Shown piece after piece: positions 8,474-59,715 of a stretch of DNA of 64,000 bases (its first letter is position 1; each line of letters begins with the position of its first letter). Position numbers and translations under genes: made by a program. The DNA comes from Alloascoidea hylecoeti (taxonomy: Eukaryota), in the NCBI GenBank assembly GCA_001600815.1, contig BCKZ01000001.1, positions 1,583,389 to 1,647,388 of the forward strand, in the 5' to 3' direction. The notes beneath the pieces were generated by a model. It had not been told where the DNA came from. It did not search any database and saw only the letters and a program-made list of their open reading frames with translations.

Positions 8474-10610
8474 TTACTATTTATATATATTTTTTTGGAT
8501 TAGTCAATTGAAGGTGAGTTTCATAAGAATAACCGGTTTTCAGCAATCTTGTGAAACAATCCTAAGTTTACAGTTTAGGTTCTTCGTGAAAATTACCCGG
8601 ATGAAAAAGTTATGTATTAAAACAGCTACATCATTATTACAGTAATAATATTTAATTTTATTTTATGCTTTAGAAAAGGGAGTGGATAAATTGAGGTTTG
8701 AACTAGACACTAAGATTGATTAATAATGATATATGTAAGCTAGGGTACCTTTAGGCGGATTGTGCTAAGGACATAGGGCACAATTATAGATAGGCTGGAT
8801 CTAACACACAAGTACAAAATAAACTCAGTTACGTAGAAACGAAAATATTAGGCGTTGTTGGTGTAGGCCTTCACTTCCTCAAAACCCACATCTATGATCG
8901 TCTTGACAAGTGGTAATATCTGATGTTTTCTTGGAAAGTTTACTCAACAAATTTTGGACGATTTTAAGATTAGTAGATTTGGAGATTGCGACTTAGTGTG
9001 AGATAACTGATTATTTGGACAATTAAGGGTATAGTGCTTTAAATGAATGGCTTATAACTTCTTTATAACATTCAATAAAAGATCTTCCAAGAATCCTTTT
9101 AAAATTGGTAATAGAGCGGCGGTTAGTTTTCAGTATTCTGCATTTCTATAAAATCCAGCAAACAGTTGACCTTTATATTACAAATTTTTTTTAGCCTTTC
9201 ATATAATTTCCAATTAAAGTCTAAAAGTACTAGAAATTATGTAAATGTTGAAGAAATCTCTGCTATAAGCCTTTTGTTCTACTCATTGTTTTATATGTTC
9301 TTGACATATTTCTTCTCTTATCTCTTCATTTGTTCCTTTACCTTGACCACCGGTACCTTATAATTAAAAGCAAATCTTTTTTTTTACTTTCTCAAGTTTT
9401 TAGATATTATAATTCCCCAGTCAATCTCGTTTAATAGGTGACAAAATTTCCTTAGAATTAAGAAGAAATAGCTGATGTGCTGGGACACAAAAAAGAAAAA
9501 AAGATTCCCGAGGTAAATTCAAAAAACTGTTTATGGTTGGAAAATATCACAAACAATATCTAGAATTTTTGGTATTTAGATATCGAAGTATAATATAGAG
9601 CCTTAATGGTTACTTGAAAAAGAAAATAACTGTTGAAGCTATCATCATTAATAATTGTTTCTGACAGGAAATTAAGAGCCCTAACGAAACAAGAGCTGCA
9701 GTCGTCTTTTTACTCTCCTTAACAAATGTTTGTGTAAACATACATCTATTTGAGCCTTCACAATTTTGTAATTAGCAGTATGTAAATTTTATATCAAAGT
9801 TGAGAGGGAATTTGGAGAAAAGAGGATGCGAAAGGTTGAATTCTTATAATAAATGTTTTTGTAGTTTAACAAGCTTAAGGGAATTGAATGCTGGTATATT
9901 AAGCAATACGACTGGCTAGGGTGACTCCTAATCATAGAACCTTGAAGAGAAGCCAGTGTATTTTTATGAGCAACTCGTCATTATCTAGACAGATACAGAT
10001 GTTAATATGGTCGGGTCAATCATTTAATTAGATCTATCCATAATTATACCTAGTCGGGAGTGAACCGGTTAATTTGAGCTTTAACATATATATATACAAA
10101 CCCATAGTTATCGTTATCGATACATTTATAACTAAGATTACATAATTCTATGTTCCATTACGATTACTTTTTTCTTAGATTTTAGGATTTATCGGGATAA
10201 TATTTATTATTTGATTTACGTATATAATTTACAACCACCTATAGTTATAGCTGAATTTCACAACTTATAATTATGAGGATAAAAGTTGAAAAAAAATTAA
10301 TACAGTATTATATAACTTATAGTCTAGTCGAGTTGGAAGTTTAGAGTTAGAAAAACGACTATGTTTTATAAGTGTAAGTGTGAATAAAACTAATTATGAA
10401 GCTTAATTGCAAAAGTAGTTGTCTTCAAATATAACACGTTAAACATAAGATTAATGAATAAAGGTATACACCTAGACGTTATTAATATATTCCAGTTATA
10501 TTGCGTACACAATAGCAGTGGCTTCGCCCTCATGCTCTTGATCTTGGCATTGAAAAGTGGGAATATAAATACTAAATATATCCCAGCTATTACTTTTAAG
10601 CTTTAGTATC

Positions 10611-21766: not shown

Positions 21767-24730
21767 ATGACTGATAAATCGTTAATAATACGGCTATTAT
21801 TAATCTTCATGGGAATCTGGGAGGTAATGTCTGTACCAAATCTTACATTTCCATTTAAAAATCAACTTCCTCCTATTGCAAGAGTTGGAGAAAATTATTT
21901 ATATACTTTAGCCCCAAATACTTTTTCTTCAAAAAATGGAGCTATTACTTATTCAATTCAGAATAAACCAGATTGGCTTTCATTTGATTCCACATCACAA
22001 ACTTTTTCTGGTTATCCGACTATTTCTTCAAATACTGAAGTTGAAACTATCTGGTTTGATATTGTCGCCAGTGATAATGAAGGTAGCGCAACAGATAATT
22101 CATCTATTACAATTACTAGCTATTCTTCGCCATCTATCTCAAAATCATATTCTGTTTTATCTCAATTATCTTCTATTGGTTTAACTGATGGTTATAGGGG
22201 ATTAGTATTAGTACCTGGTCAATCTTTCGATATCCAATTTTCAAATCAAACTTTTGTTCCTTCAAGTTTAAATCATCCCATTCAAGAATATTATGGAAGA
22301 TCTCTAGATCATTCGCCATTACCCCCTTGGATCTCATTTGATTCTTCGTCACTTACTTTCTATGGGATAGCGCCAGCAGTTAATTCAGGTATTGCACCAT
22401 CAATTGAATACTCATTTGCGATGATGGGTACTGATATAAATGGTTACGAAGGAATTGAAGCTATTTTTAGCATAATTGTTGGTGCTCATCAAATAAGTAC
22501 AAATATTACATTACCAGTGTCAATAAATACAACAAGAAATGAATTTTTATCACATAATATTCCTTTAAATTTAGTATTTTCAGATGGTGAGAAAATAACA
22601 AAAGATAATATCACTAATATAATATTGTCCTCTCAAAACGAAACTTCTATATCTTGGCTTTCAGTTATTAATGATAATGATACTATTACAGGTATAACAC
22701 CATCATCTGAAGAAAAAATTAATTTTGATGTTAAAATTACTGACCTTTATGGTAATTCTATTTCATTACCTTTTCAATTGGCAATTATTGGTTCGATATT
22801 TGCCGTTACTTCAATCCCAGATTTGAATGTAACAAAAGGTGAATGGTTTAATTATACTATACCTTCAAGTTATTTATCAGATGATGCTGAAAATGTTAGA
22901 TTATCTTATAACGCTGACGATGATAGTTGGTTATCGTTTAACGATCAAAATAATACATTTTATGGTACTGTCCCAAAAGATTTTGCGTCAAAGGAGATTA
23001 TTGTTACGGGCACAAGTTCAAATGATCAAGAAACATTATCTTTTAAGGTTTTTGGAGTTTCGGCTTCGGATTCAACTTCAACCCCAATTGTAACACCAAC
23101 ACAAACTTCTTCTCGATCCTCTTCAACCACTACCAGTAGCAGTAGTACTACAGCAACACATAAAGCATCCAATAAACATTCAAACAATAAGAAAACGTTA
23201 ACAATCGCACTAGGTATCATCCTTCCTATTATTTTCATCGCGGTAGTATCGCTCATACTTTGGTTTTGTTGTATCAGAAAACTAAAAGATAATAAACATG
23301 ATGAGGAAGCTACAATTACCGATGGCCCGCTTGTAAATGAGAAATATATTTCATCACCAATTCTTACTAATCCAAGTAATGGTACTGCTGGTGGCTCTAA
23401 TCGATCTGAATTTTCAAATAAATCGCCTCATCAATTAGAAGTAATTAAATATTTAAATGATAGTACCGAAAAGATGATTAATAATTCAAATGATCAAGTT
23501 ATACATCATGAAATTAAACCTAGTGTTGGGTCAGGTAGTGATACATCAATATATCAAGATACGGTTGAAGAACTTTTTTTAAGTAATATTGGTAATAATA
23601 ATGCTAAACTTAATACTGAGGTTGATATAACACAACCTAGTATTGTTGCACCGCTTGATCTTAAAAATAAGCATATACCTGACGAGGAGCCTAATTATCA
23701 GCAATCTCCTGAACAAAAAGGCTATTCACCCAGGAGATCTTGGAGACAAATATTAGATTCAAGAAGCACTTGGCAACCAAGAGAATCCATGAATTCTCTT
23801 GCAACAGTATCAACGACTGAACTTTTCGGTATTAGAAAAGTTGATAGTAAGAAAGACTCATCACAACGAAAACAAAGTGAAAATTCTAGTTTCAGAGAAT
23901 CTGAATTTCTGGGTACAAATGTATCAGCTATTTTATCACCAAGAAATTCTGCTGGTACTTTATTGAGAGAAAATTCATCAGGCAATGTCAAAAGGTTAGA
24001 TAGCTATGGTAATATTATTGTATCCTCCAAGCAAAATTTAAGTTACGATATTATTCATAACCGTGAACTCACTGAATCTAGCATTGTACCAACAATTGAT
24101 ATAACTGTCGCGCCAGAAGATAGGGACCCAATTACTCCACCGTTGCCAATTGTTGTTAAGGATGAACATTTTGCAAGTAAAAGAATCTCTTATACTTCAT
24201 TTGATAATGAGAGCGTTGGTGACTATTCTGGCGATGAAATAGATACAACTGACCTTCATAAATATGGTGTTCCAATGGTAAAATCTAAACTTAAATCAAA
24301 ATATTCAGTTAATAATCTAGGACCAGTTAAAGAAGAATCTTTTTATTCACAAAATGTCACAAATACAGGATATTCAATAAGTTCTGATTCTACTGATACA
24401 CATAGCTATGCTATATTTGGAGAATCCGAATCTGATCTCGGAGTTAAATATGAAAACCATACACTAGTTAAAACCAGCGAGACTATGGGTGTACCACATT
24501 CAGAATCTAATGAGACAACAAATACAAATCAATCTGATACAATTTCTCCATTGAGGCAATTTAGTAATTCATTAAAGTATAAACAATCGAAAAATGTTTC
24601 GAGTGATAAAAATGCAAAGTTAGTTGACTTTAAAAATAAAGGATTAACAGTTAACAGTATGCAAGATTCATCGAAAAATTCAGATTTACCAGGAACCAGA
24701 AGTGTATCGACTGAGCTTGCATTCATATAG
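21767..24730 (+). CDS. AXL2: Axial budding landmark protein Axl2 (cadherin-like repeats, single TM)
   Basis: Signal peptide, FPFKNQLPPIARVGE, repeated PxWLSFD motifs, S/T stalk, TM ALGIILPII, C-terminal AKLVDF. Confidence 0.92.
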   Translation: MTDKSLIIRLLLIFMGIWEVMSVPNLTFPFKNQLPPIARVGENYLYTLAPNTFSSKNGAITYSIQNKPDWLSFDSTSQTFSGYPTISSNTEVETIWFDIVASDNEGSATDNSSITITSYSSPSISKSYSVLSQLSSIGLTDGYRGLVLVPGQSFDIQFSNQTFVPSSLNHPIQEYYGRSLDHSPLPPWISFDSSSLTFYGIAPAVNSGIAPSIEYSFAMMGTDINGYEGIEAIFSIIVGAHQISTNITLPVSINTTRNEFLSHNIPLNLVFSDGEKITKDNITNIILSSQNETSISWLSVINDNDTITGITPSSEEKINFDVKITDLYGNSISLPFQLAIIGSIFAVTSIPDLNVTKGEWFNYTIPSSYLSDDAENVRLSYNADDDSWLSFNDQNNTFYGTVPKDFASKEIIVTGTSSNDQETLSFKVFGVSASDSTSTPIVTPTQTSSRSSSTTTSSSSTTATHKASNKHSNNKKTLTIALGIILPIIFIAVVSLILWFCCIRKLKDNKHDEEATITDGPLVNEKYISSPILTNPSNGTAGGSNRSEFSNKSPHQLEVIKYLNDSTEKMINNSNDQVIHHEIKPSVGSGSDTSIYQDTVEELFLSNIGNNNAKLNTEVDITQPSIVAPLDLKNKHIPDEEPNYQQSPEQKGYSPRRSWRQILDSRSTWQPRESMNSLATVSTTELFGIRKVDSKKDSSQRKQSENSSFRESEFLGTNVSAILSPRNSAGTLLRENSSGNVKRLDSYGNIIVSSKQNLSYDIIHNRELTESSIVPTIDITVAPEDRDPITPPLPIVVKDEHFASKRISYTSFDNESVGDYSGDEIDTTDLHKYGVPMVKSKLKSKYSVNNLGPVKEESFYSQNVTNTGYSISSDSTDTHSYAIFGESESDLGVKYENHTLVKTSETMGVPHSESNETTNTNQSDTISPLRQFSNSLKYKQSKNVSSDKNAKLVDFKNKGLTVNSMQDSSKNSDLPGTRSVSTELAFI

Positions 24731-25184
24731 TAATTTTTTAAGATCAATTTGTTAGGTTTGTTGTTTTCTAGATTTCTCTTTTTTCTGTTTTTGGAAAATA
24801 TATTAATTATGATGATATTTTGTACATTCCTCTTTGGATACTCTTTTATATGACGTCCTCCAACTAGTACTAACGTTTTAATATAAATCAAATTATATTA
24901 TTAGTATATATTTTGCTCTTCGATATTAAATTAAATGTTTGTTAATTATATAAATTTTTTGTTGAATAATACGTATAAGCCATAATGTTTGGGTGTTTTA
25001 TTAAAAATTGTCTTTTTTACCTAATCGGGCGACGGAAGGGATATCCCTATTATGGAAGAAGAACGTGCACTATTCAACAGTGTGGACTCACCCACTAAAA
25101 CCCTCCCTGGAATTGAACCCACGCAGGTTACGATATTGAAATTGAGATAAAGTATAAGTATTCAACAACTTTTTTAATTTGGTA

Positions 25185-25862
25185 TTTTTTTTTCTTTACT
25201 TTATCATTTTATTATAAATTATAAAAATCTACAAAAAGGCCAAAACGTAAGTATAGAATTATTCAAAAGTGTTATACCTTGACGGTAGAATCAGTTTCCG
25301 TCGTTCAATATTTGCAATGAACAATAGCACCTGTGTCTATTTTGAGATCACATGAGTTGAATCTTCTGTTTACTCGCATCTGCTATAAAATCTCTGAAAT
25401 TAGGCTTATCTTTGTACGTTGGGCATATCTTTACCTAAGAAGTGTAAGAAAATTGTTGTTTTTTTTTGAAACTATTGAAAACATGATCTTCTGTTTCGAT
25501 CATTGGTTGTAGGCAAAGAATACACCTATTCATATTACTATTTTTATGATCACTTGAGGTTAGACTCCAGTGATGTGTGTAGTGTCGGAGATTTAATCTA
25601 TGAATAAAATCTACCGACCTGGCTCTTTCCTATTGATCCAGTGTAAGATCAGCCACCATTCTTCCAGTCCTGTGTGCTGCGTTCTTTGATTTGTCTAGTT
25701 GGCCAATTAGGAATGATCGGTTAATCATCCATTTGCTGATAGTATCTTGATGCCGCTCTTCTGAACGCTCCGATTTCTATTGGTTCATCATCATGAGTTG
25801 TAACATTATTGGTACATTCTAGAGGAGAAGATTTGGATACCACCTCATAAGCTGTATATTCA
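25185..25862 (-). mobile_element. Decayed 5'-truncated non-LTR retrotransposon (L1-like ORF2 C-terminus with A-tail), copy A
   Basis: Manual translation with stops/frameshifts: FRRAASRYY..PIIPNW...WWLILHWINRKEPG.VDFIHRLNL...RCILCLQPMIETEDHVF (zf-RVT-like CxxC..ETxxHxF). A9 tail at 25185-25193. Confidence 0.7.
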
Positions 25863-25867
25863 TCAAG

Positions 25868-26565
25868 TTTTTTTTTACTTAATTATATTTTATTATAAAC
25901 TATTTAAATTTATAAATATATTGTAAATGTATGTATAGTAATTATTTATTTTTATTCATCTTATCTGATGAAGACCAATATGTATAAATATGAATATATC
26001 ACCATTATTTGTATTTTAAATATAAACGCAGTTTTTCTCTTTTCATCATTCTCCTAATGGTTTGCTGGAATCATCATTTTCCATATTTTGATTGCTAAAT
26101 CTTCTATGGACTCTTATATTCCATATTATCTCAGAAATCAAACTCAAGTTTCTGATAATCTCATGATTCGTTATCGCCGGGTTTTGAATATCATTTTCTT
26201 GATTTCAGATTTATCAAATATATGCGATTCTGTTTCTATACTTGGTTGAAAACATAAAATACATTTGTCTAGTGATCCATTAATGTGATGTTTGGATTTA
26301 AAAAATATGAGAATAATTTCGTACGATGTATAAAATCCACTGATCCAGGATTTTCTTTGTTTATCTTTGCTAACAATTCCCACCATGTTTTCCAATTTGT
26401 TGGATCTCTATATTGAATCCGATGTTCCCAATTTGGTGTAAAAGGGACTAATGTGCTATTATAACGAGCGGCTGCCTGTATATCGTCATTTGTAAGTCCT
26501 GATCATCTTTGGTCTGTACATCAAGTGATGGTGAACTTACGCTATGGGAGATTTTCTTGTCTTGT
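25868..26565 (-). mobile_element. Decayed 5'-truncated non-LTR retrotransposon, copy B, starting just downstream of tRNA-Gly
   Basis: AAARYNSTLVPFTPNW...NWKTWWELLAKINKENPGSVDFIHR...KCILCFQPSIETESHIF, colinear with copy A. A9 tail at 25868-25876 with a 3' end similar to that of copy A. The 5' boundary is approximate. Confidence 0.72.
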
Positions 26566-26579
26566 CTCCAAAAAGAGAT

Positions 26580-26650
26580 TGCGTCAGCCCGGAGTCGAAC
26601 CGGGGGCTCTTCGATGGCAACGAAGAATTTTACCGCTAAACCACTAACGC
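26580..26650 (-). tRNA. tRNA-Gly(GCC), intronless
   Basis: GCGTTAG TGGTTTAGCGGTAAAA TTCTTCG TTGCCAT CGAAG AGCCCCCGGTTCGACTCCGGG CTGACGC A folds as a cloverleaf with anticodon GCC. T5 terminator at 26570-26574. Confidence 0.96.
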
Positions 26651-27149
26651 CCTGATACGTGTATTGCAAAGGAACAATCATGAAATCATCATTATTTTAG
26701 GTGTTCCTTCTAAGAATACACAAAAATAAGAATAGAAAGAGAGGTTTTTATTTCACTATATATAGTAGAGATTTCCTCAGAATTTAGTTTCTAGTTATAT
26801 AATTTAATTGGAAAATATATGAAAATTAAAAAAAAAAAAAATTGAGTCTATCTCTGAAATACATTCCACAGCTCTTGAACTAGCTAGTTCAGAGATATTG
26901 CATTCTACCACACATGTAATACCTTAATATGTTTATCACTTCTAGGACTTCTTCTATTAATAGCTTCTGGTTTTATCTATATAAACGTAGGATAAAGCCC
27001 ACTTTAATGGGAAGTCAGTTTTAATACACTTTTCCTGTTTAAGATCTTGATCGTCGTCTGTATCTGATTCCGCCAGTTACATCTATTGTAAGTTATTAAG
27101 TCATTAGTAGCTTACTTTACATGTATCGCTGAGTCTCCGATGGCTAGAC

Positions 27150-27665
27150 CGCATTGTGTATTAGCCGCAAAATAACTACTGAAACGGTACCAAAATTGAC
27201 AAATGAAGCGTTACAAAAACTGGTGGAAAACCCAGCAGGAGAAGATATCGAAAAAAGAATAAAAGACATGGAAGAAGAAAACATATCCAAATACTCGATT
27301 AAATCAATAAGCCAGAAGTGGTATAATAAAAACAAAATTATATTGAAACCAAACAGATGGATGCAGTTAATTCCGGAACTAAAAGATGAAAATTGGAAGA
27401 AATGGCGGGGATTTATGTTACTCATATGCTACATCATAATAAAAATGCAAAAAAATCTGATATTTGTAGCTTATGTCAACAAGGTAAAGATGACATATTA
27501 CATCTATTTGAAGATTGTTCAACAATAAGAATACTAAAGAAGATGATGTTAGGAAGAGAAAGAATAGGGATCAAATTATTGATGATAAATACAAAAGAAA
27601 ACAATATAGAAAAAAGTGGGGCTTTTATCAAAAAGGCACTAGAGCTAAGAAAAAATGTTATATTT
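27150..27665 (+). mobile_element. Decayed non-LTR retrotransposon ORF2 C-terminal fragment, copy C
   Basis: Overlapping ORFs 27154 and 27393 join by a frameshift: SIKSISQKWYNKNKIILKPNRW...DENWKKW / HHNK...ICSLCQQGKDDILHLFEDC (complete CxxC-H-C zf-RVT-like knuckle). Confidence 0.72.
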
Positions 27666-27679
27666 GCAGAGATCTTAGT

Positions 27680-28510
27680 TTTGATTTTTATGTTTTCTTT
27701 ATTTTACTCCAATACTACTTGCAATCTCCTTGCTTAAGCTCTGATCTGTTTGGTTTTGACATTATTCTTTCCTTTTCATATATCTTTTTGCTAACTAATT
27801 TTATAGATATCTTGTTTATTCCAAGTCTTTATTCGGTGATTTCTTTATAATTATTATACCTTTTGAAACCACGACCGGTTATGAGTACTAGTATCTATAA
27901 TCTTTGCTCACCTTTTAGTTTAGATTTTTATTTGAAATTCTTCCTTATAATCATCTACCATTAAATTCGTTTCTGAGTTAAAACTTAGAGTTGCATCAAA
28001 GAGCCATCCGCTAGAATGTCTATCCACAGAAATTTCACTTGGACCTATTCATTGTCAGGTGCTTGTAGATTTTGGCTACTTATTTCCCCGACTTCTGTGA
28101 AGATAATCTCACAAATTTAAGACTTTGCTAAATGTTTGACAACTAAAAGTCGTCAGAGAATTATTATAGGTTCAACTGCCGACAATTGCACGTTGTAAGT
28201 TATTTCTAAGCCATATTCTTAAACATCATTACTACGTAGTACGTATTAAAGTTTTCCAATTGTAACAATTCACTTCTTAGAATTTTGATGAGGTCCAGAT
28301 TGCTTCAGTTTTAATCGGTGAATTTGTGGGATGCTCTGACTTTGGAAACTATTTGAATCAAATGTAAATAAAATCAAATTTATCCTTATTTGTTTCATTT
28401 TTCTTGAAGAGGATTATTTGTTTATCGGTCTGATTATGTTTTCTCTTAATTTGGTAATCATGGGTGTATGGGATTATTTTATCAAAACAATTCTATGGGA
28501 AATTCAGGTA
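27680..28510 (-). mobile_element. Decayed non-LTR retrotransposon fragment, copy D, tail-to-tail with copy C
   Basis: INKISIKLVSKKIYEKERIMSKPNR-SELKQGDCK*YW aligns with copy C ISKYSIKSISQKWYNKNKIILKPNR..ELKDENWKKW. The extent towards 28510 (YLNFP, like the RT YLG motif) is tentative. Confidence 0.55.
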
Positions 28511-28792
28511 AAAAACTCGGTAATAATCGTAAAAAAAGAAGATAGAAAGGGAAGTCTGAATACCTAAGAATATAGTAAGCAGTGGTTTTTTAAAAAAAGT
28601 CAACGTGGTTAAGATACAATTGCAATTTATGCATATGTATAATATAAAACTAGTGTCGGAAATAATTCGTCTAACTTACGATGGTGTAACCTTGTATTTA
28701 ACCGGATGGTCACATGATCCGATGAAAAAGTAAGTTAACACTGTAACTTATAATTTGTACCCAAAGTCCAAACTAAAGATCAAAGTTGTAGG

Positions 28793-29511
28793 ATGACCCA
28801 AAGTGCAAAGATTTATTTTGGGAAGTTTGTCGTTAATAGTCAGGTATTATATTTGGTGCTGTTACGTTTGTTATTCATACATCTAACAAATTAACTCGTT
28901 ATTAGGTGTTTTATGTATGTTACAATTATGGGTTATACTATTATTTCAAATTTATTGACTTTTGAGGGTAATGAAAGAAAACAAAATATTCATATGGATT
29001 AGTTAATCTCAAGCCTATTCTACCGGGTCATGTAAGCATTGAAAAATATAATAAAGCAATAATTATATGGAGTGACTAATATAATTAGGTTCTTGTATGC
29101 CCATTACGAAAAGTCGAAAGATTAAAAGATCTTACTCCTATAGAATCACAAGATTTCTTCTCGACAATTCAATTAATTCAATCAAAACTTTATACAGCAT
29201 ATGAAGCAGATGCTCTTAATTTTACAATTCAAGATGGCCCAGCAGCTGGGCAAACAGTTCCACATTTGCATTGCCATTTAATTCCAAGACGTTGGAAAGA
29301 TCTACCAGATGTTGATGACATTTATGGGGAATTAGCTGGAGAAAAAGGTGATTTAGAAGAAGTTTTTAAAAAAGAGAAGGAAATTGGGCAAAAGCATAAA
29401 CTTGTTGTTGATGACGAAAGCCGTGAACCAAGGAGTATGAAGGAAATGGAAGACGAAGCTGAATGGTTGAGTGGTTTTTTTAAAGAAGAGCAAGACGCAA
29501 TTAATATTTGA
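28793..29511 (+). CDS. HNT2: Dinucleoside triphosphate hydrolase (Fhit/Hnt2); exons 28793-28843, 28906-28914, 28978-29031, 29089-29511
   Basis: Spliced product MTQSAKIYFGKFVVNSQ|VFY|KTKYSYGLVNLKPILPGH|VLVCP...IQDGPAAGQTVPHLHCHLIPR (HIT motif). Three phase-0 GT-AG introns. Confidence 0.92.
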
Positions 29512-30054
29512 AATCCCGGTGGATCTAGATCTAACCATTGTAATATTAATTGATTAATCTTGAATTTCTTATTTTAAGGGAAAAAACCCGGATTATAATA
29601 TATTTGTGATCTTCAGTGATTCTACACTCTAAAATCATAGAATGGCATCATTCAATAGATTCTGATTGAATCTGTTCATCTTCTCACAATGGCGTTAATA
29701 CACACACACACGTTATATGATGATTATATAAACAATAGTAAGGATATATAAAACACTTGCACATCAATTAGTATAGCGATGGAAAACATTTATAAGCAAT
29801 TGGTTGATCATTATTCTGCCATAACACGTAATTAAAGTTGTACTTATAAAATAGCTAATAGATCCTAGGTGAAAATATTATCGTCACCATCACCGACCAA
29901 CCACACATCAATTATTACAAATTTATATATTAAACACTAGATCATTATAAATAAAACATCTAAAAAAATAAAATATAAATTCATTATTTTCATTTTGTAA
30001 TTATATCATTTATCATTTATATATAAGCAAAACAGTATTGTGATGAAATCAAAT

Positions 30055-38092: not shown

Positions 38093-39359
38093 GAATTCGA
38101 ATATAATGATTACCTATGTATATGTATTGGTCAATTAGTTTGGATTAAGATGATAAACTTTTCTAACTCTTTATTTGTAAATAACACATCACTGAATCTT
38201 ACATTCAAATACACCTTACATATTAATCAAAGAATATCTGTGTCCTAGGTTAATTTCGGCAATTGGATCAAAATGTTTCGATCCTATGGAGACTTCTTCT
38301 ATCGTCATGTCATGTGGGACAAATATCCTAAATATTTGGTAGAATGTTGAAGTTCAGTAGAAAATGGAATCATAAACCAAGTGCAGAATATTTATCTATT
38401 ATAATAAATGTTATATCATTTGGCTAACTTTTGGCGCGTATTCGTATATGTTGATAGCTTTTCAAATACTTTTTGATCTTTGTTTTTGCCAAAAGTATAT
38501 TATTATATATCAAAGATTAACCAGCATTCTACGGTATATATTGTGTCACATGACGAAAACGAATCATTTTGTTCCGAAATTAACCAGAAATAAAAGTTTA
38601 ATAAAATTTCAGACCAGCAATTATCACTATAATTTGATGAATATTATTATAAATAATAGTCATCTAGTGGCGGAAAAAAGTAGCACAAGTACTCTAATAA
38701 AATATATAAACCATGTTGTCATTTTGGCAATATGATTCTTATGGTTTGTAAGTGCTAATTGTATAATTGTAGTTATATCAGGAGATTCTTCAATAATTGG
38801 ACTTTGAAGGGCCTATTTTGTATGTCGTATTTCAGAGATAATTAATTGACACATTTTGAAGTTCGTTTGGTAGGATTTAGACATAAGTTTTGACAAGCAC
38901 ATTTGAGAACAAATTGACTAATTTCGAGAAATTCAAATGACAAGGGCTGAACAAAGTACTTATTGTTCCAAGGGGTTTTATTTTCTATTGTAGTTATTAT
39001 ATTACAGCCGTTGATTTGATTATATTGTACCTATCAGGAGTCGTCATCGCGATTATCTTTAAAATTTTGAAGACCTTAAGCTGTACCTAAAGATAAGTGT
39101 TTCAAGACTCAATCGGAACAACTAATAAGAAAATTTTGTAGAGAATTGTAGCTTTTGCTATTTTACATTTTGTTAAATCATAAAGTTTATAGCAATCGTC
39201 AATTTTATTATATAGGTATAAATTATAAGTTGAATTGGAAAGGGTCAAAAACGAAAAATCAAGAAATTTTTACAATCTGTAGAGATTTCACTCAATAACG
39301 TGTAAGCCTCTTGATATTTTATTTGAGAGTATATATAATCAAAACCTTAATCATTTTTG

Positions 39360-39951
39360 ACCGCTCGAAATATAAATGAAGTTACTCACCTAGTTGGTTG
39401 GAGCACGTCATACATAGGCTGAAACTGGGTTTGTAAAATATATCAAACCAGCTAGGGGAAGGCCAAAGTTTTCTTTGCGAAATCGCAGGGATCTAATATT
39501 AAAAGAATTACAAAAAGGTCCGATGCAATATTCGATTGTTACGGAGCGGATTCAGTTAAAGACTAATTCATAGGCATATCAAAGAAGTATTAGAACGGAT
39601 GGTGATATCCCTCATTCAAGCCGTTGAGGGTGGGATTCAACAAGACTATGTTCCATTCAACAAATCAAAAAACCCAAGAAAAAAATATAATGGAACACCT
39701 ATGCTGGGGGTGCGAGATCTCCGGACCCACTAATCCCATTGAGTAATAAGCTTGAAATTGGTTTAGGAAACAGGATCCCGGAGTTAGTTGTAATAAAAGG
39801 TGCTATCCAGAAGATCAAGAATCATTTTTTCAGAAATATTGCCAGAACTATGGGAACAGCTATGATAGATCAATTGCTCTTTCTCCAAGTCATTGGATTC
39901 ATGCCAAAACGAATAGAACAAGTTGCCTCCAATGATACTAAGACAAATTAA
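39360..39951 (+). mobile_element. Decayed, internally deleted Tc1/IS630-type transposase remnant
   Basis: ETGFVKYIKPARGRPKFSLRNRRDLILKELQKGP (39421 onward, GRP linker); frameshifted ARSPD.NPIE (about 39712-39743, compare SPDLNPIE); MPKRIEQV (39901, compare SMPxRxxAV). The order is correct. No TIRs were identified. Confidence 0.65.
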
Positions 39952-42900
39952 GGGACGTAATTTCTGCCTTATTTGGTAATATTTCCTTTAGAATTGGTTC
40001 TTTAATTATTTCATATTTATGAATTATATGTCTTTCAGAGTGAAGTAACGTTGCTCCGTATCATCTGGTCATCTACTGTAACATCTTATATATTTCTTCC
40101 AATCAGCCTTAAATTTCTTATATTAACTGGATAAAATTTGAAAAGATTCAAAATAAGGATTTATATATCTTAAACCGGTTAATTATTTTATTACGTCACC
40201 AAGGCATCGATTATAATTATCTTCGATCCACTTTTATTTGTATGGCCATGGTGTCGTACGAATAAGTACAAAAAACTTGTATATATGTAACATTTATTTG
40301 TATAGTTATTTTCTAGTCCGTACGAGTGATGCATTTGTATTCAGTTTCATATACTTTTCACTGATTATGTATGTTATAAGTATTGCTTAGTAATATATTG
40401 AAAGAGATAGTAATATCGATATCGATTTAATCATGAGTTTAAATCAATTAGCTGTTACTATTAAATTTCACAGTTGCATAACTCCATTTTATAATTATTG
40501 AAGGTGTCGTTATATGTTTAATCATAACCCGGGATTTTTAATAGTTCTCGGCCATGACGATGTGATAATAATACTAAAATCATGCAATTGGTTTTAATTA
40601 TAATTATAAAACTTCGAATCCAACGGTTTCAAGAATTCGATGGGTATCAATACGTATGGTCCTAGCTATCTATATAAATTATGTAATTTACGAAGTTACT
40701 TGGTGGAGTATTATATGTAAAAATCGGTTCTAAGTTTTGAAATTCGAAGCTATTTACCTCCACAGCAGGGATAATCTTCAATAATCAGAAATTCGTTGAT
40801 AAGAGAAGCAATAATAATTGTTCGATTGCAAATTCCAATTCTTCGTTGCTGAAGTCCTATATATTTATATAAATAACCACAAGGATAGTTACATGGGTAT
40901 AGAAATTTCACTGAATTAACCCTGCGTGAACTATACCCATATGCATATTCATAGTTATATATTTCCTTAGTTAGGATCAGAAGCCAAATTCACCCACTCG
41001 TTTACTAGTGATTCTCCAATTATGAGATTACGACATAGTAATCGGAAGGTTAAGTGCTGATCAATTGTAGCAATGCTTGGTGCCGTATTAAATCTACTGT
41101 CCTACAATGTACGGCTTAACATTAATCCTTACCAAGACCGTTTTTCTGTCATGCTAATCACGATATCTATACTCAATAATTCAGATACCATAGAATTGGA
41201 TCTTTCTGCTTATAGGCTATAATCCAATTATCCAAAACTCATACCAACGCTCTACAATTAATCTACGTACTTCTGCATAATCATGGATCTTTCTTCGCTT
41301 CCAATGCTTCCATCTAAACTTGCAATTCTTCTATGCACAACCGTTGGACTGCAAATCTGAAATTTCTATAGATCTATATCTTAAGCTTGTCTCTGATATT
41401 AATTTGATTATGAAAGTAAAGTAATTATAAGGTTGGCCTAATGGTATAATTATTTTACCGTATGCATATATTATTGCCAATCTCTAACATATTTTTTACT
41501 TTGGCAGTTTCTGGATGCTTCTAGAAACTCTTAGGATTTCATACCTAACTATATATACCTAGATAGAGAACCTTTCATCGGCTGTAATGGCCAATTGAAA
41601 GCTTAGAGTGTTTTCTGGTTAAGCTCGAGAAGCTGCTGAATTATAATTAGTGCTTCAAGATCAATATCTATAGATCCAGAGTTATAACTAGCTATATCCG
41701 AGTACAGTATCATATACCAATTAAAAGTCTTTTTTAGACCCCTAGATTTTGTCGAGAAGGAAATAATATTGCAATTGACAACCTAGATTGCGTTCATATT
41801 GTCGTAACTATGGTATAGCTTCAACTATTATAACAACATATCTATTACAAGGTGTGCCTCAATTTTACAAATACGTTGATATTTAGACTGTAATATTGTA
41901 ACTCCAATTACAATTACAGTTACATGTAGGCTAAATATTATATACCATCGAGAAATATTAGTATTAGCGTTCACAACTTCACATACAAAACCAGCATAGA
42001 ATGCCATATATGCCACTATGTAGATACAAGTAATATATAACTTAAGTTTTTAATTGAAGATATTGTTTTCAATGTTTTCAAACCTATGTCTATATAGCCA
42101 GCTATACCGTATATATATGGGGCATGTATAACATATTGTATAGTACTTAAATGATCTATAATCATGTAGACTCAATTATTAATACGTATTTAAAAATATC
42201 AATATATAACCCAAGTTGTATAATTGGAAGCCATTTAATGATAAGATCTAAAACTAGAATTTACTTGAAATTATCATTAGCTCTTAGTTGTGGTTTTTAT
42301 GATTTTGAGATTAACCAGAAATATATAATGCCAATAGGATTGTAAGAGAATGATAAAGTTATATTTAAACACGCACACAAATGATTACCTTTAAAAGGTT
42401 AGTTAGTAGTTACAGACTTGTTAGGAAGTGCGACCAATTTTATTTTTGCTATATATATAAGAATTTATAAAACTGTCGAGGATCGTATCTTTCCATTGTA
42501 GTTCTTATTTAGGGAATAGAGAGTTGCAATTGGAGTCCTTATATTGCTGCATATCAGTTATGAATTATCTTCGAGCATTATGTATTGAAATATTAACTGT
42601 ATATAAACATTGAGAGTATTTCACACAGCTTATTCGAGGATTTGCATCCGGAAATATCGATTTATTAGCTATATAATTATTACTTAGTCAAATTTTAAAG
42701 TATCAGATGTTTTTTTCTTGAATAAGAAAGGAAGCATATGAGCTACCTTTATCAGGTCAATATTCATTAAATTTGTATAGTAAATGATTATAAAATCGAT
42801 ATCATATATCCACAAATAACAACATCGATATCATGATCAAGTATATGATAAGTTAAAACAATGCATTTATTGCATATATAGCTATAAGCGAATATGATGA

Positions 42901-45900
42901 TCATGGTATGATTGAGCTACTGTAAACTAATTCAAAACCAAATTTAATGGTGATCTTGTTCATTCGTAGTTACTAATTGTATATGATATGCAAGGTACTC
43001 AAGGGTTTGAAAGTATATAATATATAAATAGTATCAAATTATATATATATTATGCTACTTCTGAGTTAATTATATGTATGCTATGATGTTATGTAGGTGT
43101 ATATTCCTAGTATGGGTATTTATCATCACTTTTATAATTAATAAATGAATTGATATATGGCTATTTTTTTTTAATATCCTTTTAAGCTGTCTTACTTTAA
43201 ATTTAAAACTTTTCAAAAAAAATAACGATTTTATAGATGTTCATCGGTCCAAAATATCTGAAGCTTTTATTAATATGTTTCATTTATTCATTTAAAAGTT
43301 TCATGAACATTTCTATAAATAGTCTAATCGAAATCATAGAATAGTGTCTCAAGTTTAATTGCGACAATTGCAAGTGTATAGCTAGGGTGGGACACAAATC
43401 GATATCTATTCAGCAGTAGCATTTTATATTGACAAAAAAATCAATATACCAAATCCAGACCCCTTTTAAGATCTTATTTTTTGTTCCAAGTTTATATTCT
43501 TTGAAAACGTTATTTAACAAAAAGTTAATTAAGGAATACCAAAACTTCAAGACAGTAATAATTAGTGTCTTAGGGACATTGCATTTTGTTGTATTTTAGG
43601 TAATCTAAAGAAGTATTTTTTCACCCTTTTTCCTTAGAAAATTGGTGACTCTAGAATATTAAAAATGAGATAGCTTTTAGTGGTAAGATATCTTTTTGGA
43701 TAAACTTCAGGATTATTTGGGACGATCGTATTTTATAATTATTTAGTAGAATTAAAAAAATTCTCCTTAATATTAATAAGTCTGGATTATAGACCGCGTA
43801 GTTAACGTATAGCAATTATAATTTTCATTTTTTTGTTAGTAGACAAAAATAGTAAATAAATGAAGTTAAGAATGTAAAATAAAGGTGGTGTTATTTTATC
43901 ACATCATTTGCATTATTTTGTTATCTCCCCATGCATACTGTGTATTTGTTAACTAATCATGCATACCCTTGTCCAACAAATAATTCTAATTATAATTATA
44001 AAGAATATAGGTTTTTTTTCAAGAAAAGTAGGAAATGAGGACCACAAAAGGAGGAGAAAAGTGAAGATAACGATGTTAAAAAATTTTCATATATTTCGGA
44101 AAATCTTTTTTGAATTTGCTTTAGAATTTCTTCATAATATAACGTTTTAGCAAAAAAGTTACTAATATTAATTGTATATGACACTTATATATAATCAAAA
44201 CGGATTTAAATTTTTCTAGAACAGAAATCGAAGCTTCATGGAACATCAGACTTCTGCATAAAATTATTAATTTCTACATTGGCATGTGCATCTGATATTT
44301 CTATGGTAAGTACCGACAAATTGCATATAAGATCTTCAAATAATATTATAATTATAAGAAAGAAAGTTAAATGGATGGCCATGGATATATAGTAATCAGA
44401 TGATATCATCAATATAATATCATGTATCTTCTCCTTCAATGGTCATCTTATTAATTTTAGTATGAATATCGATATTATCATGATTCATGATACTTTTAAT
44501 CAACATAATATGTTCAAATTAAAATATTTATGCGAATAATACTATATATGTTAAAATTGGACCACAATAATTAATATTAATGAACAATTAAATTATATTG
44601 TACAACAGATTCATAATTAAGCTTGTGATCACTGATCAGTCATATACTCATATTTATTATACCCATTTGTTATTGGCCGGAATTTGGAAATGCTTCTAGT
44701 ATAATTGGTTTATCATGAGCTGCAGTGTTCTATGTTAGGCCATGAAATATTCGATTAATATTGCAATTGTATATTTCATTCATTGTATTATTGCAACTGA
44801 TATAATACATTTCAAATTTAAACATGATACCTGGATCATCATATATCTTAATTATGAGAAACTTTACCATGAGATTTTATATATATGGATACATGTATAA
44901 TATAATTAGTTTCCTGAAGTACAAGATTAAAGCTTAAGTCAATTGATTATTTACATTAACTAGTCTATTCTGTTGTAGTTGTATATAAAATTGTTATACA
45001 TGTATATATAAATTTCAACCATATGCATATAGCTATATATATGGTATTATGGTGTAACTAGCCATGAAATACGAGATTTATTAACATATTATTATAATTA
45101 TGTTAATAATTATCAGAAGCTTATATTTTTCTTTTCGTTAATTATATAATATTAATGGGAGTTTACAATAAATTAAAGAAATTTATAAATGAAATTTCAA
45201 TCTCCTCCAAGTGCCAATGTTGTCCTCCAACTTTGAATATGATGACTATATAATAGTCATGGCTATATCATGATTTATCCGAGTGAGATTAATTATAAAG
45301 AGGCACTACAAACAGAGTTTAAGTTTTTCGGGTTATACATATTAGAAAGCCTTCTTACGTACATGGGGGTTAAGAACAATGGGGAAGATAGTTCTAGGAA
45401 AAAAGAGGGAACCGAAACTTTTATATTTGATTCGTCATGATCATTTTTCGTTTCTTTTTCTTTCTAGGTTTGAGTTATTCATACTTGAAACGTGGAACAC
45501 GAACAATTGCAATTTGAAAAACTCTCAATTGTAAAACAACCTAAATAGAATCATTGGCTCCATTTCCAAATAAAACCAGTCTAGATCTGTTTCATATGGC
45601 TTCTATAAACTTCCTATTTCTTCTATCGTGTGCTCAACTTGCATTGTTAATAATTTCTTATAGCCTATTAGTTGTATATTGATAGTATTATTAAATAATT
45701 AGTATATGCAACCGAATCAGCCATTGTAATAATTATAATTATAACTATATGTACCGGTATTAATTTATACAGTTCTAGGTCTCCACTAATTATATAAGCA
45801 AACAAAGAAATACTTGACTATTGAAATATTCAGGAATGAAATAATAAATATATGGCGTATTTTGTATGAAATACGAGAATCTAGGATAGTCTTCATAATC

Positions 45901-47614
45901 AACGGTAAATTTCTTCATATTTCTTAGGCATGGAATAGGTTTTAAGATCTGTAATAAAAAGGAATGATGAGTAATAGCAATATTTATGAGTTGATAGTCC
46001 GGTACTGGTGGACAAGTAGTGATATATGAGTTAATTGGGATTGAACCATGATAGTAGTAGCATTGCCTACGGTCGAAAGTTCAAGGTACAACATATTGGG
46101 TGTAGTGTCGTACCACATAACTTTGTATAAAAAATATATTACATTACTACTAGATATAAAATATGCATTATAATTATAAGTTAAATTTGTTCTGGAACTA
46201 TCGATCAGTTGAAGGTGTTATAATTAAATATTAATACTGTATTTAAAAATAAATGAAAAGATTGATAAACCCGATTGATCACTGTACGAACGTTTTCTAG
46301 AATTGTAATATTAATCTGATCAAAATATAGCATATTAGCAGCTATATAATGTAGATTGAAGTCTTATATATAATTATTATATAGTAGCACATTATAATTC
46401 ATATTTATGATCATGAGCTCCAGTTCGAAATTCATAACTTTTGAAATATTGAATTTGGTTAATGCTGGTTATAATTAGAGAAATTATTTATTGTTAGAAA
46501 AAACCTAGCACTTCAAGTGAATGTGAACTGGAGTAACCTGTTAGTCTGTATCAAAAATTCAAGTTTTTCTCAAAAAGTCCTTTTCAGTAAACTGTGGCTT
46601 ATAATCAAGGATTGTGATGATGTACTAACCATTAGTAATGATTTGTTCAAAAGTGACTAATCATATAATTGTGTAAGTTATACAACTGTTTAACATTGTT
46701 AGGTTAAATTCATATAATCAATTGCAATATTAATGCAATTCTCATTGATTATGATTACATTCTATAGTACTTCTTTTGAAACTGGTTATAATTACAAGCA
46801 TATAATTGTCATAGCTAGTATCACTTTTTCCGATAAGAATTGAAATTTGCAATTAGTACGTGGGACAGATAAATCATGTTGCAATTGCAATTGAGGGACT
46901 TAACTTAAAGAAGAAAACAAGTATCCAATTGTAAATGTGATGTTTGAACCCCGGCTTTAACTAGGGTGTGATGAGAGGCTATGGTAACGTTGACGTTGGA
47001 TAGATCGGAGCACAGCTATCAATTGCAATTACTACCTACTACAAGGATGAAGTAGTATTTACCAGTAAAGTCGTCTAACCACAACGGCCACAGACATGTG
47101 ACAAGAAGCTGTTCCCGATGTTGTAATGGAAGATCTGATTGGTATGAAACTTGGAACAACCAAATGGAGGGCGGCATATTGGTGCATCCACAGGGCAGAA
47201 AACCAAATATTCCCAGTGAATTTCCCACGCGGATGGAGTTCAGATCGATGTGAAGGCGATCGAAATACTAATGTAAATTAATTATAATGTGACAATTACA
47301 TAAGCATGAACCATGAACTGCATTAAAATACCTGTCTGGACTGATGTTTCTACTTTAACCGCATCCGGCTGTTTTTGGTATACATCGACCGTTTACAGTA
47401 TTAACTCTGCAGTGCATCTCCTTGTCGAGTATTAAAATATGACAAATCATGCTACGTCTGTGGTCTAATAATATCTGTAGGTACTAATCATTCAGACATA
47501 CAGGCAAAAAAAAACAATTAAAACCTCTTCATTTCTCCTTTTCTCTCCTTTTTAAAAGTTCTTCTCGGACTGTTCATAGTATATTAACATTTTAAGCCTA
47601 CTGCGTTTTAAAAT

Positions 47615-49524
47615 ATGACCACCACCTTACAAGATTCAAACGAATATCGGGAGTCTGGCTCCTGTCTTTCTGCTATATCTTTAAAGCAGTCGGAATCAAT
47701 AAAATCAAATATTTCTACTACATCTTCGGAGTCCACTGCAAGTACAGCTGCCAGCTCTGTGTCGAGTCCTTCGTCTTTAGTCCCACAGCGTCACCCTTCA
47801 AACCATAAAGGCTCTCATACTGCGTTTATCCATAAACTTTACAAGTAAGTTAAAATTTGTAACCCTCAATGCATGGACCACGTAATTTCTAACTAATATA
47901 CTTATGCAGTATGCTTGAAGATGAGACAATATCACATCTTATATGGTGGACTAATTCAAATGATAGCTTTTCTATTAGCCCTGGAGAGGAATTCTCCAAG
48001 GTACTAAGGTGAGATATAGGTGAATTGTGTTAATCTGTGAACCTTGAACTTAACAAAATGTTTGGACATCGTCCTTTTTCTTTTTTTATTATTTTTAGTA
48101 AATATTTCAAACATACCAATGTCGCATCTTTTGTACGCCAATTAAATATGTATGGCTTTCATAAAGTTAATGATACGTCATTTTTGGGGCAAAATGCGAA
48201 GCACGATCAGGAGGAAAGCCATAATGCTAGTAAGAGAAATTCAAAAACCAATGATTTTAACCCACATTGGGAATTTAAACATAGTACTGGAAATTTCAGA
48301 AGAGGTGATACCGATTCATTGAAATGTATCAAGAGAAGATCATCCAAAACTTCGAAGAATTCCAACAATTCAAATAACAACTCAAGCTCTAAAAGTTCAG
48401 CTGTATGCAAAACCATAAATGATAGCAATATGAAAATTAAAGATATGGAGGCTGGGAATTCGGGCGATGATATAGATATGAATTACCACAAGCGCAGACA
48501 TTCTGAAATAGATGTGAGAATCACTGCATTGAATCAAAACTTTATTGTACTACGAGAGGATTACGTTAGACTTCAATTGAAATACGACATTGCGATTGAT
48601 GAATTGAAGCAAACTAATCTCGATATGATCCATTTACTGGATATTACTCAAAGGCTAGCGTCTAACCATATCCCAGAGGTATCTTCTCAATCATTAACAC
48701 GGGTACCATCAAGTGTTTCATCTGTAAGTGAAACTCGAAGTCCAGTATTAATGTCTAAAGAATTCCAACAGCCACTTATAGAACCTTCTATTGAAGCTGA
48801 GTTATCGGGGTTCAGAAATAAAGTGATTCAAAGAACTTTTTCAGGTAAAGGAACTTCTTTAGAACCATATCATTCTCTTTCTGCAATTAAACCATCTTTT
48901 CGAAAGGATGTTCAATTTTCAGGGTCTAAGCTTAAGCAAAGGAATTACTCTATATTTTGTGATCCACTTGCGTCGTTTCCCCAGAAGAGGCATTCTTCCC
49001 CATCTTCTATTAATCCAGCTCCTTCGGCATCAAACCCTATGAGGTCATTAAGCAATGATATGTCATCGAGGTTGTCTTCTGTGGGTATCTCAGACTCATT
49101 GTCGTCTGAATATCGGAGGCCGTCTTCATTTTCAACGCCATTTATGCACTCAAACGTACCATCAGCTCACAGGGGAAGCCCTCTAGTTGGTTCTTCAAAT
49201 CACCTTGCGCATTCATCTTCAGCGAGCTCATCATCTCCTTCTTATATTCCAATGGCAAGATCTTTATCACGGCCATCCTCGCTATTAGAGGAGCAGTTCT
49301 GTGAGTTTCCTGCTTCTAAGAGAATGAAAACTAGTAGTACACCATCGCTATTGGAGTCTGCTAATATAGGTAAGCACCATATTCCATTAAGCTTGAAGGT
49401 TGCCAGGGAAGCATGCATCATGCAATCGGGATATTCTCCAAGTGGCGATAATTTTAATGATAGTCAACAATTTAATTCATCTAGAAGAGACACCAGTGTT
49501 CAGGCCCTATTGAATAGGGATTAA
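47615..49524 (+). CDS. HSF-type transcription factor, Sfl1/Mga1-like; exons 47615-47844, 47910-48008, 48099-49524
   Basis: Splicing gives AFIHKLYNMLEDETISHLIWW...[31 protein letters not shown]...WEFKH. Coiled coil follows; C-terminal SVQALLN. Confidence 0.88.
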
Positions 49525-57986: not shown

Positions 57987-59715
57987 CTACATTCTATTAT
58001 TGTTTCTATCGGCAGTTCGAGGTTTAGCTCGTATGATATTGTCAACTCTCAACAAGACCTCAGCAGCTTCAGAAGCACTTGAAACAACAGCCCTCTTCAA
58101 TTTATAACTTTCGACAATACCTAGTTCTCTCATATCTGCGACAACGCCATTATCAAGGTCCAAACCGGATGTAGTCATACCATTATAAATAGCGGATCTT
58201 AACTTAGTAACCAGCTCGCTTGAATCAAAACCTGAATTATCAGCGAGAATGGTGGGTAATTGACGCAAAGCTCTCGAAAAAGCTTCAATAGCTAACGCTT
58301 TCTTACCTTCTTCATTTTGTGCCTGTTGTTCAACTGCTTTTGACATGAGCATTTCGGAACAACCACCTCCTAAAACGGTTCTGGTTTCTCTGACTGTCTG
58401 GGATAATACAGATAAAGCGTCATGTAAGGATCTTTCAGCTTCATCTAAGATTTGTTCCGTAGCACCTCTAAGGACAATAGTGCAAGCCTGTCCAGCGGCG
58501 ACACCAACAAATTTTGTCATAATGTCCTCACCAATGATGACCTCTTCAATCAAATCACAGTGTCCTAGCTTAACTAATTCGGGCTTATCAAAAGTTGAAA
58601 CAACCTCACCACCAGTAACCAATGCTAAACGTTCAACACCCTCAAAATCAGCATGTTCTATTGAGTTTATTTTAGAATCAGTAAATAATTGTTCAGGCCA
58701 GTTGTAAATCAATTGTCTATTGACAAAACAATTTATACCAAAACTTTTAATTTTTTCGACCTTATTCTTCAATTTCTCTTTTTCAGCCTTTTCTAAAGCA
58801 GCCAATTTACTTGTTGAATCGACTTTAAATTTTGCTCCAAAAATCTTTACCTTATCTGTATCCATAGGCGTATTAGCAATTAATATTTTAGCATTTGTTA
58901 TCTTTTTTGGCTGATTAACACCAAATCTTTTATTTAAAATGAAACCTTCATCCAAGAAAGAATCAGATAGTTTTCCACCAATAATCTTAATGATTTGAAT
59001 GTGATCAAGATTTGTACTACCTTTTAATCTCAAAACAGCATCAACTGCTAATTTTGAGAATTGTATTTTGTCTTGACTTAAGACCTTTGAAGACAATGTT
59101 GTTTTTGCAATATTGATTAAATCTTCACGGAAAAGATTAGGATCTTGAGCATGATCGACTGCCGCCTTTTCTAGAGCTGACAAAGCTGTTTTGCTAGCAA
59201 TTCTGAAACCCTCAATAATTGTTTGTGGATGGATCTTTTTATCAACCAATTTTTCGGCTTCACGCAATAATTCGGCAGACAGAACGGTGACAGAAGTTGT
59301 ACCATCACCAATTTCATCGTCTTGAACTTTTGAAATGTTGACTAGAACCTTAGCAGCAGGATTGTCCAAAGGAATTGCTTTGAGAATCGTAGCACCATCA
59401 TTGGTAACTAATGTTTCACCAGTTGAACCTGACTGTAATAGTTTGTCCATTCCTTTTGGTCCTAAAGTAGTCTTGACAAGGTCACCAACAGCAATGGCTC
59501 CAACAAAGGTTGAAAGACGGGCATTCTCTGCTCTTTCTTCAGTAACCTGATTTCCAAAAATATTAAGTGACTAAAAAATAACAAATTAGCATTCAAATCA
59601 AAGAATAAAATGAAATCGAAATCAATGGAAGGTTCCTAAAATCAGAAAAAAATGAGATTCAAGTCTGGACACCTTTAAATTTATTAGGATAAAGAATAAC
59701 GTAAATACACACCAT
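57987..59715 (-). CDS. CCT2: CCT/TRiC chaperonin beta subunit; ATG-only first coding exon 59715-59713, intron 59571-59712
   Basis: [59 protein letters not shown]. The intron reads GTGTGT...GCTAAT...TAG. Confidence 0.95.

Follow-up and report, generated by a model that had tools for sequence, protein, structure and literature searches.

The 64,000-nt window analysed here (contig BCKZ01000001.1 of the budding yeast Alloascoidea hylecoeti) is AT-rich, with a G+C content of 32%, and includes an intergenic region of about 4.2 kb between the end of an Axl2-like gene (24727) and a HIT-family gene. A tRNA-Gly(GCC) gene within this region, proposed by the first-pass annotation from the sequence alone, was found by both ARAGORN and Rfam and is the sole tRNA or Rfam match in the window. 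Around it lie decayed relics of long interspersed nuclear elements (LINEs), a group of retrotransposons without long terminal repeats (non-LTR): relics A and B downstream, on the strand of the tRNA and with their 5′ ends toward its 3′ end, and relics E1, C and D upstream. A sixth relic is located at 9185–9475. The region is best explained as a graveyard in which two related, extinct LINE families inserted independently at least five times, and the arrangement of the copies suggests a preference for sites beside tRNA genes. Coordinates are collected in Table 1, where database open reading frames (ORFs) related to the relics are designated by P numbers.

Table 1. Features of the tRNA-Gly locus and of the related copy at 9185–9475 (window coordinates; aa, amino acids; UTR, untranslated region; TSD, target-site duplication).
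Feature	Coordinates	Strand	Description
tRNA-Gly(GCC) gene	26580–26650	−	ARAGORN; Rfam tRNA, 59 bits; T5 RNA polymerase III (Pol III) terminator at 26571–26575 (−)
Relic A	25170–25846	−	5′-truncated tail from a sister subfamily, following B head-to-tail; P0018 match 87–100%, E 6e-35
Relic B	25868–26513	−	5′-truncated LINE tail, on the tRNA's strand and downstream of it; P0016 match 76–93%, three segments, E 4e-37
Relic E1	26707–26841	+	about 135 nt of 3′UTR plus A14 tail; 77% identical to 9185–9267
Relic C	27148–~27675	+	C-family ORF2 C-terminus (PNR, WKKW, CCHC); P0020 91% over 74 aa, E 2e-41; zf-RVT E 9.6e-4
Relic D	27709–27822	−	internal C-family-like fragment, PNR/WKKW only; P0019 39.5% over 43 aa, E 6e-4
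Sixth relic	9185–9475	−	last ~30 C-family ORF2 codons to stop; P0015 78% over 18 aa, E 8e-6; P0006 E 1.4e-4
Candidate TSD copy (i)	26514–26526	−	ACTTGATG..TACAG; starts 54 nt past the tRNA 3′ end
Candidate TSD copy (ii)	25847–25868	−	directly after the B tail, directly before A
Candidate TSD copy (iii)	25154–25169	−	directly after A's second A-run

The copies share a layout that would be left over from target-primed reverse transcription (TPRT): an ORF2 C-terminus with a CCHC knuckle, a 3′UTR of about 170–185 nt and an oligo(A) end. Three relics (A, B and C) carry the string PNW/PNR ... W-K-x-W-W ... CxxC-x9/10-H-x4-C, and of the 3,230 six-frame peptides of the window no others were matched by a profile of the knuckle region. 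The first-pass annotation had counted four ORF2 C-terminus fragments; A, B and C show the full string, while D comprises 43 residues in which no CxxC...H knuckle was found. The oligo(A) ends are A9 in both A and B, A14 in E1 and A8 in the copy at 9185, and 5′ truncation is variable, leaving about 135 nt of E1, about 290 nt of the 9185 copy, 646 nt of B and 677 nt of A, with the 3′ ends of A and B alike. Both features, the poly(A) ends and the uneven 5′ truncation, are consistent with TPRT. The A14 run at 26828–26841 had been regarded as an orphan and is now seen to be the tail of relic E1; no other A or T run in the window is as long as 12 nt.

An exhaustive phmmer search of 1.84 billion representative sequences with the knuckle ORF of relic C gave 12 matches: the query itself, eight short ORFs (38–159 aa, 54–96% identity) and three long, unrelated proteins (P0008, P0010 and P0012), which carry other Pfam domains and were rejected. 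Two word-index profile searches, in which 12 of 4,099 and 13 of 186 candidates passed, added eight more ORFs. The resulting 16 outside ORFs comprise 14 of the C family, on at least 13 other contigs, one like B (P0016) and one like A (P0018). They are closer to B, A or C, respectively, than A, B and C are to one another, in keeping with the earlier division into an A/B and a C/D subfamily. None of the 16 is an intact ORF2, the longest having 159 aa, and no longer relatives of C2 were present among 221 candidates. The database searches gave no significant match to a full-length LINE. A metagenome scan with the C-family profile produced at least 592 pattern matches, of which the only one to pass tblastn was an ORF of a bacterial peptidase with no tRNA nearby, and this was discarded as spurious; scans of viral contigs yielded none (0 of 41 and 0 of 22 candidates).

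The best Pfam match to the C-terminus is zf-RVT (PF13966), which was found at E ≤ 0.05 in five of 11 knuckle-bearing sequences, from both families (E 3.5e-4 to 0.047), with a best score of 21.6 bits and all scores under the curated cut-off of 27.5 bits. Among ESM Atlas neighbours, 8 of 30 for P0013 and 0 of 30 for P0016 fell in zf-RVT clusters. A profile search of the PDB returned only TLP20 (E 0.31), and an AlphaFold2 model of P0016, built from a 13-row alignment, had a mean predicted local distance difference test score (pLDDT) of 41.5, too poor for use in fold comparison. Because of the poly(A) tails, the 5′ truncation, the many copies and a CCHC C-terminus with zf-RVT as its best, if sub-threshold, Pfam match, there is little doubt that the relics are real LINE fossils, and this part of the first-pass annotation is confirmed.

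Upstream of the tRNA gene, the 5′ end of E1 (26707) lies about 56 nt from the first base of the tRNA (26650), on the opposite strand, so that the two are head-to-head. Relic C has the same orientation, and both have their 5′ ends toward the tRNA. Its reading, PNR ... WKKW ... CSLCQQGKDDILHLFEDC, is interrupted by an internal deletion or frameshift near 27410; homology is demonstrated from 27196 onward, and the copy is 3′-truncated, with neither 3′UTR nor tail. Relic D was also detected by tblastn within the window (56% over 25 aa, E 2e-4), and by eye its similarity may extend to about 27685. C and D meet tail-to-tail, both without 3′ ends, and are about 69% identical over 64 nt. No family-like sequence was found from 27830 to 28510. 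A perfect 16-nt palindrome (GAACTAGCTAGTTC plus flanks) is situated at 26876–26891, just past the E1 tail.

The first-pass annotation had recognised no such fragment elsewhere in the 64 kb, a statement overturned by the sixth relic, which belongs to the C family (E 8e-6) and has no tRNA nearby. Its ORF2 ends in '..LLNEIDWGIIISKNLRK*', and the stop codon is followed by an A9 run (9377–9385), about 185 nt of E1-like (E-type) 3′UTR sequence and the A8 tail (9185–9192). The E-type stretch, at 9185–9370 (−), is a second copy of the E1 sequence (77% identity over 83 nt, E 5e-10). The simplest reading of this order is that E-type sequence represents the 3′UTR of the C family; alternatively, the E-type sequence at 9185 could be a separate element inserted behind the A-tract. 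If it is the C-family 3′UTR, then E1 is probably an extremely 5′-truncated C-family copy, and it is on this reading that E1 is counted as the fifth copy beside the tRNA and 9185–9475 as the sixth relic.

A second locus is suggested by P0003, a 159-aa ORF on a contig of 3,915 bp and the sole outside ORF among the 16 to reach into flanking DNA (one of one informative). It contains '...LKKNGASPPGVEPGIFRC...' ('KK..PPGVEPG'), followed after about 20 residues by the C-family knuckle. The antisense translation of the window tRNA-Gly is '...SKKRLRQPGVEPGALRW...' ('KK..QPGVEPG'), and in both peptides 'GVEP' corresponds to the B-box read backwards and 'KK' to the terminator read backwards. When the N-terminal 96 residues of P0003 were compared with the window by tblastn, the best match was the antisense tRNA (26564–26632; 39% over 23 aa, E 0.77). 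P0003 therefore looks like a 5′-truncated C-family copy placed head-to-head about 55–65 bp upstream of another tRNA gene, whose presence is deduced from the peptide. This gene appears to differ from tRNA-Gly, since the rest of the peptide is different.

Downstream of the tRNA gene, A and B read, through frameshifts, PNW ... (T/D)WK.WW ... KE.PGSVDFIHR ... C-x2-C-x10-H-x4-C, and their homology spans the interval from PNW to the CCHC knuckle (tblastn of the window, E ~1e-9). In B, the frameshifted ORF2 remains run from 26502 down to 26046 and are followed by a 3′UTR of about 170 nt and the A9 tail (T9 at 25868–25876 on the plus strand). Relic A likewise has a 3′UTR of about 170 nt and an A9 tail (T9 at 25185–25193), and then a further A6 run (25170–25175). 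The last 75–80 nt of the two relics are 75% alike.

Since A and B are so nearly equal in length, are bracketed by similar short motifs, and C and D meet tail-to-tail, the cluster might be thought to derive from one or two events rather than five, with A/B arising from a single insertion by unequal crossing-over of flanking repeats and C/D by inverted duplication. This is unlikely. A and B share only 44–52% of their residues at the protein level and roughly half of their nucleotides, and each is nearer to an outside ORF on another contig (76–93% for B with P0016, 87–100% for A with P0018) than to the other, which argues against a local tandem duplication. The bracketing motifs are far better preserved than the elements they would have duplicated, C and D share just the 69% over 64 nt given above, and E1 is a separate, tailed copy.

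The bracketing motif, of 13–17 nt, is present three times on the minus strand, in the order motif–B–motif–A–motif, which is the pattern expected of two insertions into one site, and the three occurrences are candidate TSDs. A and B may thus have been inserted at one and the same position, about 54 nt downstream of the tRNA. The 5′ end of B given in Table 1 was set by the candidate TSD; without it, the end would lie between 26513 and about 26552. Copies (i) and (ii) align locally with a score of 19, reached by 112 of 1000 shuffles, and copies (ii) and (iii) with a score of 27, reached by 23 of 1000 shuffles, to which the A-run contributes.

The closeness and shared orientation of the tRNA and B also allow a different origin, in which the LINE enzyme jumped to a pre-tRNA during reverse transcription, as in U6-L1 chimeras, so that the tRNA-B unit is a retro-copy and the tRNA was never a target. 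Switching of Zorro3 to other RNAs has been reported in S. cerevisiae (PMC7175516). A chimera should be joined at the end of the transcript; however, at least 18 nt of non-tRNA sequence (53 nt if the candidate TSD is accepted) separate the T5 terminator from the first homologous base of B, and A, E1, C and P0003, which are on the other strand or distant, would be left unexplained. This origin is accordingly regarded as very improbable.

A region near the end of relic A, at 25065–25135 (−), has an exact B-box GGTTCAATTCC (25109–25119) with TTTT 8 nt later, about 50–60 nt past the relic A tail. It could be the remnant of a dead tRNA gene. As a second tRNA gene it was rejected, there being no call by Rfam (E ≤ 10) or by ARAGORN, even with -ps80. 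At that setting ARAGORN made 27 calls in the 64 kb, including 9763–9855 and 28112–28189, a level of noise at which such calls were not accepted as evidence.

The positions of the relics resemble those of the tRNA-targeting non-LTR elements of social amoebae. TRE5 is described as integrating 40–54 bp upstream of tRNA genes in the opposite orientation, TRE3 40–150 bp downstream in the same orientation, and NLTR-A is also listed, together with NLTR-B at 39–64 bp upstream (PMC5911963, PMC5006619). The geometry of TRE5 and NLTR-B is matched at two loci, by E1 at about 56 nt and by P0003 at about 55–65 nt from its peptide-inferred tRNA gene, and that of TRE3 at one, where both B and A follow the direction of the tRNA, with a candidate insertion point 54 nt past its 3′ end. 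With these orientations and spacings, and with the second locus represented by P0003, preferential integration beside tRNA genes is favoured as the best single explanation, although we hold it to be as probable as all the other explanations together and no more. The Pol III-gene targeting proposed by the first-pass annotation is in this sense partly sustained: the distances, the orientations and P0003 speak for it, while the copy at 9185–9475 has no tRNA and D is discordant.

A number of points weigh against targeting. Just two tRNA loci are involved and, as the window was picked for its cluster, P0003 alone is independent. The tRNA gene beside P0003 was read from a peptide and not from DNA, its top-ranked tblastn match has the E value of 0.77 given above, and threading of a cloverleaf through the degenerate back-translation gave no discrimination. 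Relic D is in the opposite orientation to E1 and C, and C has no defined 5′ end: its distance from the tRNA could be as little as about 190 nt or as much as about 545 nt. The C-family copy at 9185–9475 has no tRNA or Rfam match within 17 kb; as one of three C-family copies with a definable 5′ junction, it shows that the association with Pol III genes is not near-exclusive. Recognition of E-type sequence as the C-family 3′UTR depends on that same single locus. The shuffles give weak support to the candidate TSDs, copy (i) can also be read as internal to B, and neither E1 nor the 9185 copy yielded a TSD (shuffle fractions 0.71, 0.67 and 0.26). Lastly, no reverse transcriptase, endonuclease or ORF1 was recovered from the window copies or the 16 database ORFs.

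Several of these observations would be expected if tRNA genes had played no part in the choice of site, with the elements entering, for instance, accessible AT- or A-rich DNA, and if relics had persisted only in harmless places of a compact yeast genome; a first copy beside the tRNA, with its tail and dead sequence, would then have served as a sink for later ones. One of the six window relics is in another intergenic region without a tRNA, D is discordant in orientation and the TSD statistics are weak. Moreover, A is 22 nt behind the A9 of B, and the E-type sequence at 9185–9370 is directly behind an A9, placements which recall the A-tract target of Zorro3 (PMC1965478, PMC7175516). Passive accumulation in a safe, A-rich sink does not, however, predict that E1 and P0003, at tRNA loci unrelated to each other, should share a head-to-head arrangement with a spacing of about 56–60 bp, nor families that are consistent in strand on either side of the tRNA, and the 5′ flanks of E1 and B, unlike those of Zorro3 insertions, have no A-tract. 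It is a serious rival, which we consider less probable than targeting by a clear step.

If targeting is accepted, the elements would have favoured the neighbourhood of Pol III-transcribed tRNA genes as integration sites. The C family would have landed about 55–60 bp upstream, on the opposite strand and with the 5′ end toward the tRNA, and the A/B family about 55–80 nt downstream, on the strand of the tRNA. Later insertions at the same spots would have pushed older copies outward. Purely by analogy with Dictyostelium TRE5-A, a protein of the element might recognise the TFIIIB/TFIIIC complex. The preference would not have been absolute, because one copy is away from any tRNA. A wider proposal, which we advance tentatively and with less assurance than targeting itself, is that a LINE lineage of budding yeasts outside the CTG group independently evolved Pol III-gene integration on both sides of the tRNA (about 55–60 bp upstream head-to-head, about 55–80 nt downstream co-oriented), and that only its fossils survive.

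Dictyostelium TRE5 (TRE5-A) and Polysphondylium NLTR-B are similar to the yeast relics in being poly(A) or TPRT elements whose ORF2 carries a zinc finger at its C-terminus, and in the upstream, head-to-head geometry of E1 and P0003 (PMC5911963). The relics differ from them in that the host is a budding yeast, the elements are extinct, and at least one copy is away from a tRNA; contact with TFIIIB is established for TRE5-A and is an analogy for the relics. TRE3 (TRE3-A) is comparable to B and A, which are about 54–80 nt downstream and co-oriented with the tRNA, at one locus. The portions available to us of a 2018 review of Pol III targeting list only TRE5, TRE3, NLTR-A and NLTR-B as non-LTR elements and only LTR elements for yeasts, and give downstream insertion as known only from dictyostelids (PMC5911963). 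A full-text literature search with exact term matching found no report of a tRNA-associated LINE in budding yeast.

Among yeast LINEs, Zorro1–3 of Candida albicans also have an ORF2 with a zinc finger at its C-terminus, together with a poly(A) end and A-tracts inside the element; the C family likewise has an A9 run immediately behind its ORF2 stop. Zorro3 is reported to integrate into poly(A) tracts, with A-tracts on both sides, while Zorro1 and Zorro2 are subtelomeric (PMC7175516, PMC3956500, PMC1965478). In contrast, no A-run borders E1, B or the 9185–9475 copy on the 5′ side, so that flanking by A-tracts on both sides is absent, and a Zorro3-like A-tract reading is possible only for A and for the E part at 9370. 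The host also differs from the Candida hosts of Zorro in reading CUG as leucine. Ylli and the Scheffersomyces elements Ace, Bri and Can belong to the L1-type LINEs of budding yeasts and are represented mainly by 5′-truncated poly(A) copies, and the parts of their descriptions available to us report no association with tRNA genes (PMC5014426, PMC8546629); they include intact copies, whereas none was found here. The LTR elements Ty1–Ty4 and Ty3 likewise use the upstream side of yeast Pol III genes as a safe haven. In contrast to the relics, they employ an integrase and have neither poly(A), 5′ truncation nor downstream targeting.

In compact genomes, the targeting of tRNA genes by retrotransposons is a textbook example of convergent evolution. 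If the yeast elements did target tRNA genes, they would be the first tRNA-targeting non-LTR retrotransposons, and the first downstream-targeting elements, outside the social amoebae; the split between TRE5 and TRE3 in Dictyostelium would be duplicated in yeast, the ability of TPRT elements to locate the Pol III machinery would extend to fungi, and the question would move to organisms with excellent Pol III genetics. If they did not, the locus would be an ordinary graveyard of dead LINE tails. LINE fossils are extended here to a CUG-Leu budding yeast, outside the Candida and Yarrowia groups of described yeast LINEs.

The codon assignment was taken from CCT2 (903 bits against S. cerevisiae Cct2), in which both of the two CTG codons are at conserved leucines. 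CTG makes up 35 of the 836 leucine-box codons in 14 ORFs (57990–59570 (−) plus all large ORFs). By this evidence the host uses the standard code, with CUG read as leucine, and both CCT2 codons exclude a CTG(Ser1) yeast. As the host is thereby outside the Candida CTG clade, LINE relics were somewhat unexpected in it.

Between 70 and 79 of every 100 words sampled from 24000–30000 (fractions of 0.70–0.79) were present in four sequencing runs from three studies, three runs being from one organism and one from a wood-decay metagenome. The HIT-family ORF on the far side of the relics (29089–29508, +) has no start codon, and a short ORF upstream of it (28975–29079) resembles the N-terminus of HIT proteins ('LVNLKPILPGHV'), which suggests that the gene (28975–29508, +) has an intron of a few tens of bases.

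Further along the window, 38100–48030 is a 10 kb interval without any ORF of at least 120 aa, in which G+C falls to 26% at 42–46 kb. One exact B-box match is present (46037–46047, −), internal repeats of at least 40 nt, direct or inverted, are absent, and none of the 23 ORFs of at least 60 aa in the interval has a Pfam match. No point-centromere motif was found in the window, and the interval might be a regional centromere. Near the start of the window, two 270-aa ORFs for NIF-type phosphatases form an inverted pair (365–1174, −, and 1600–2409, +) with identical first 50 residues. The pair is bracketed by single N bases at 295, 360, 2414 and 2479, and is either genuine, as an inverted duplication, or an artefact of assembly.

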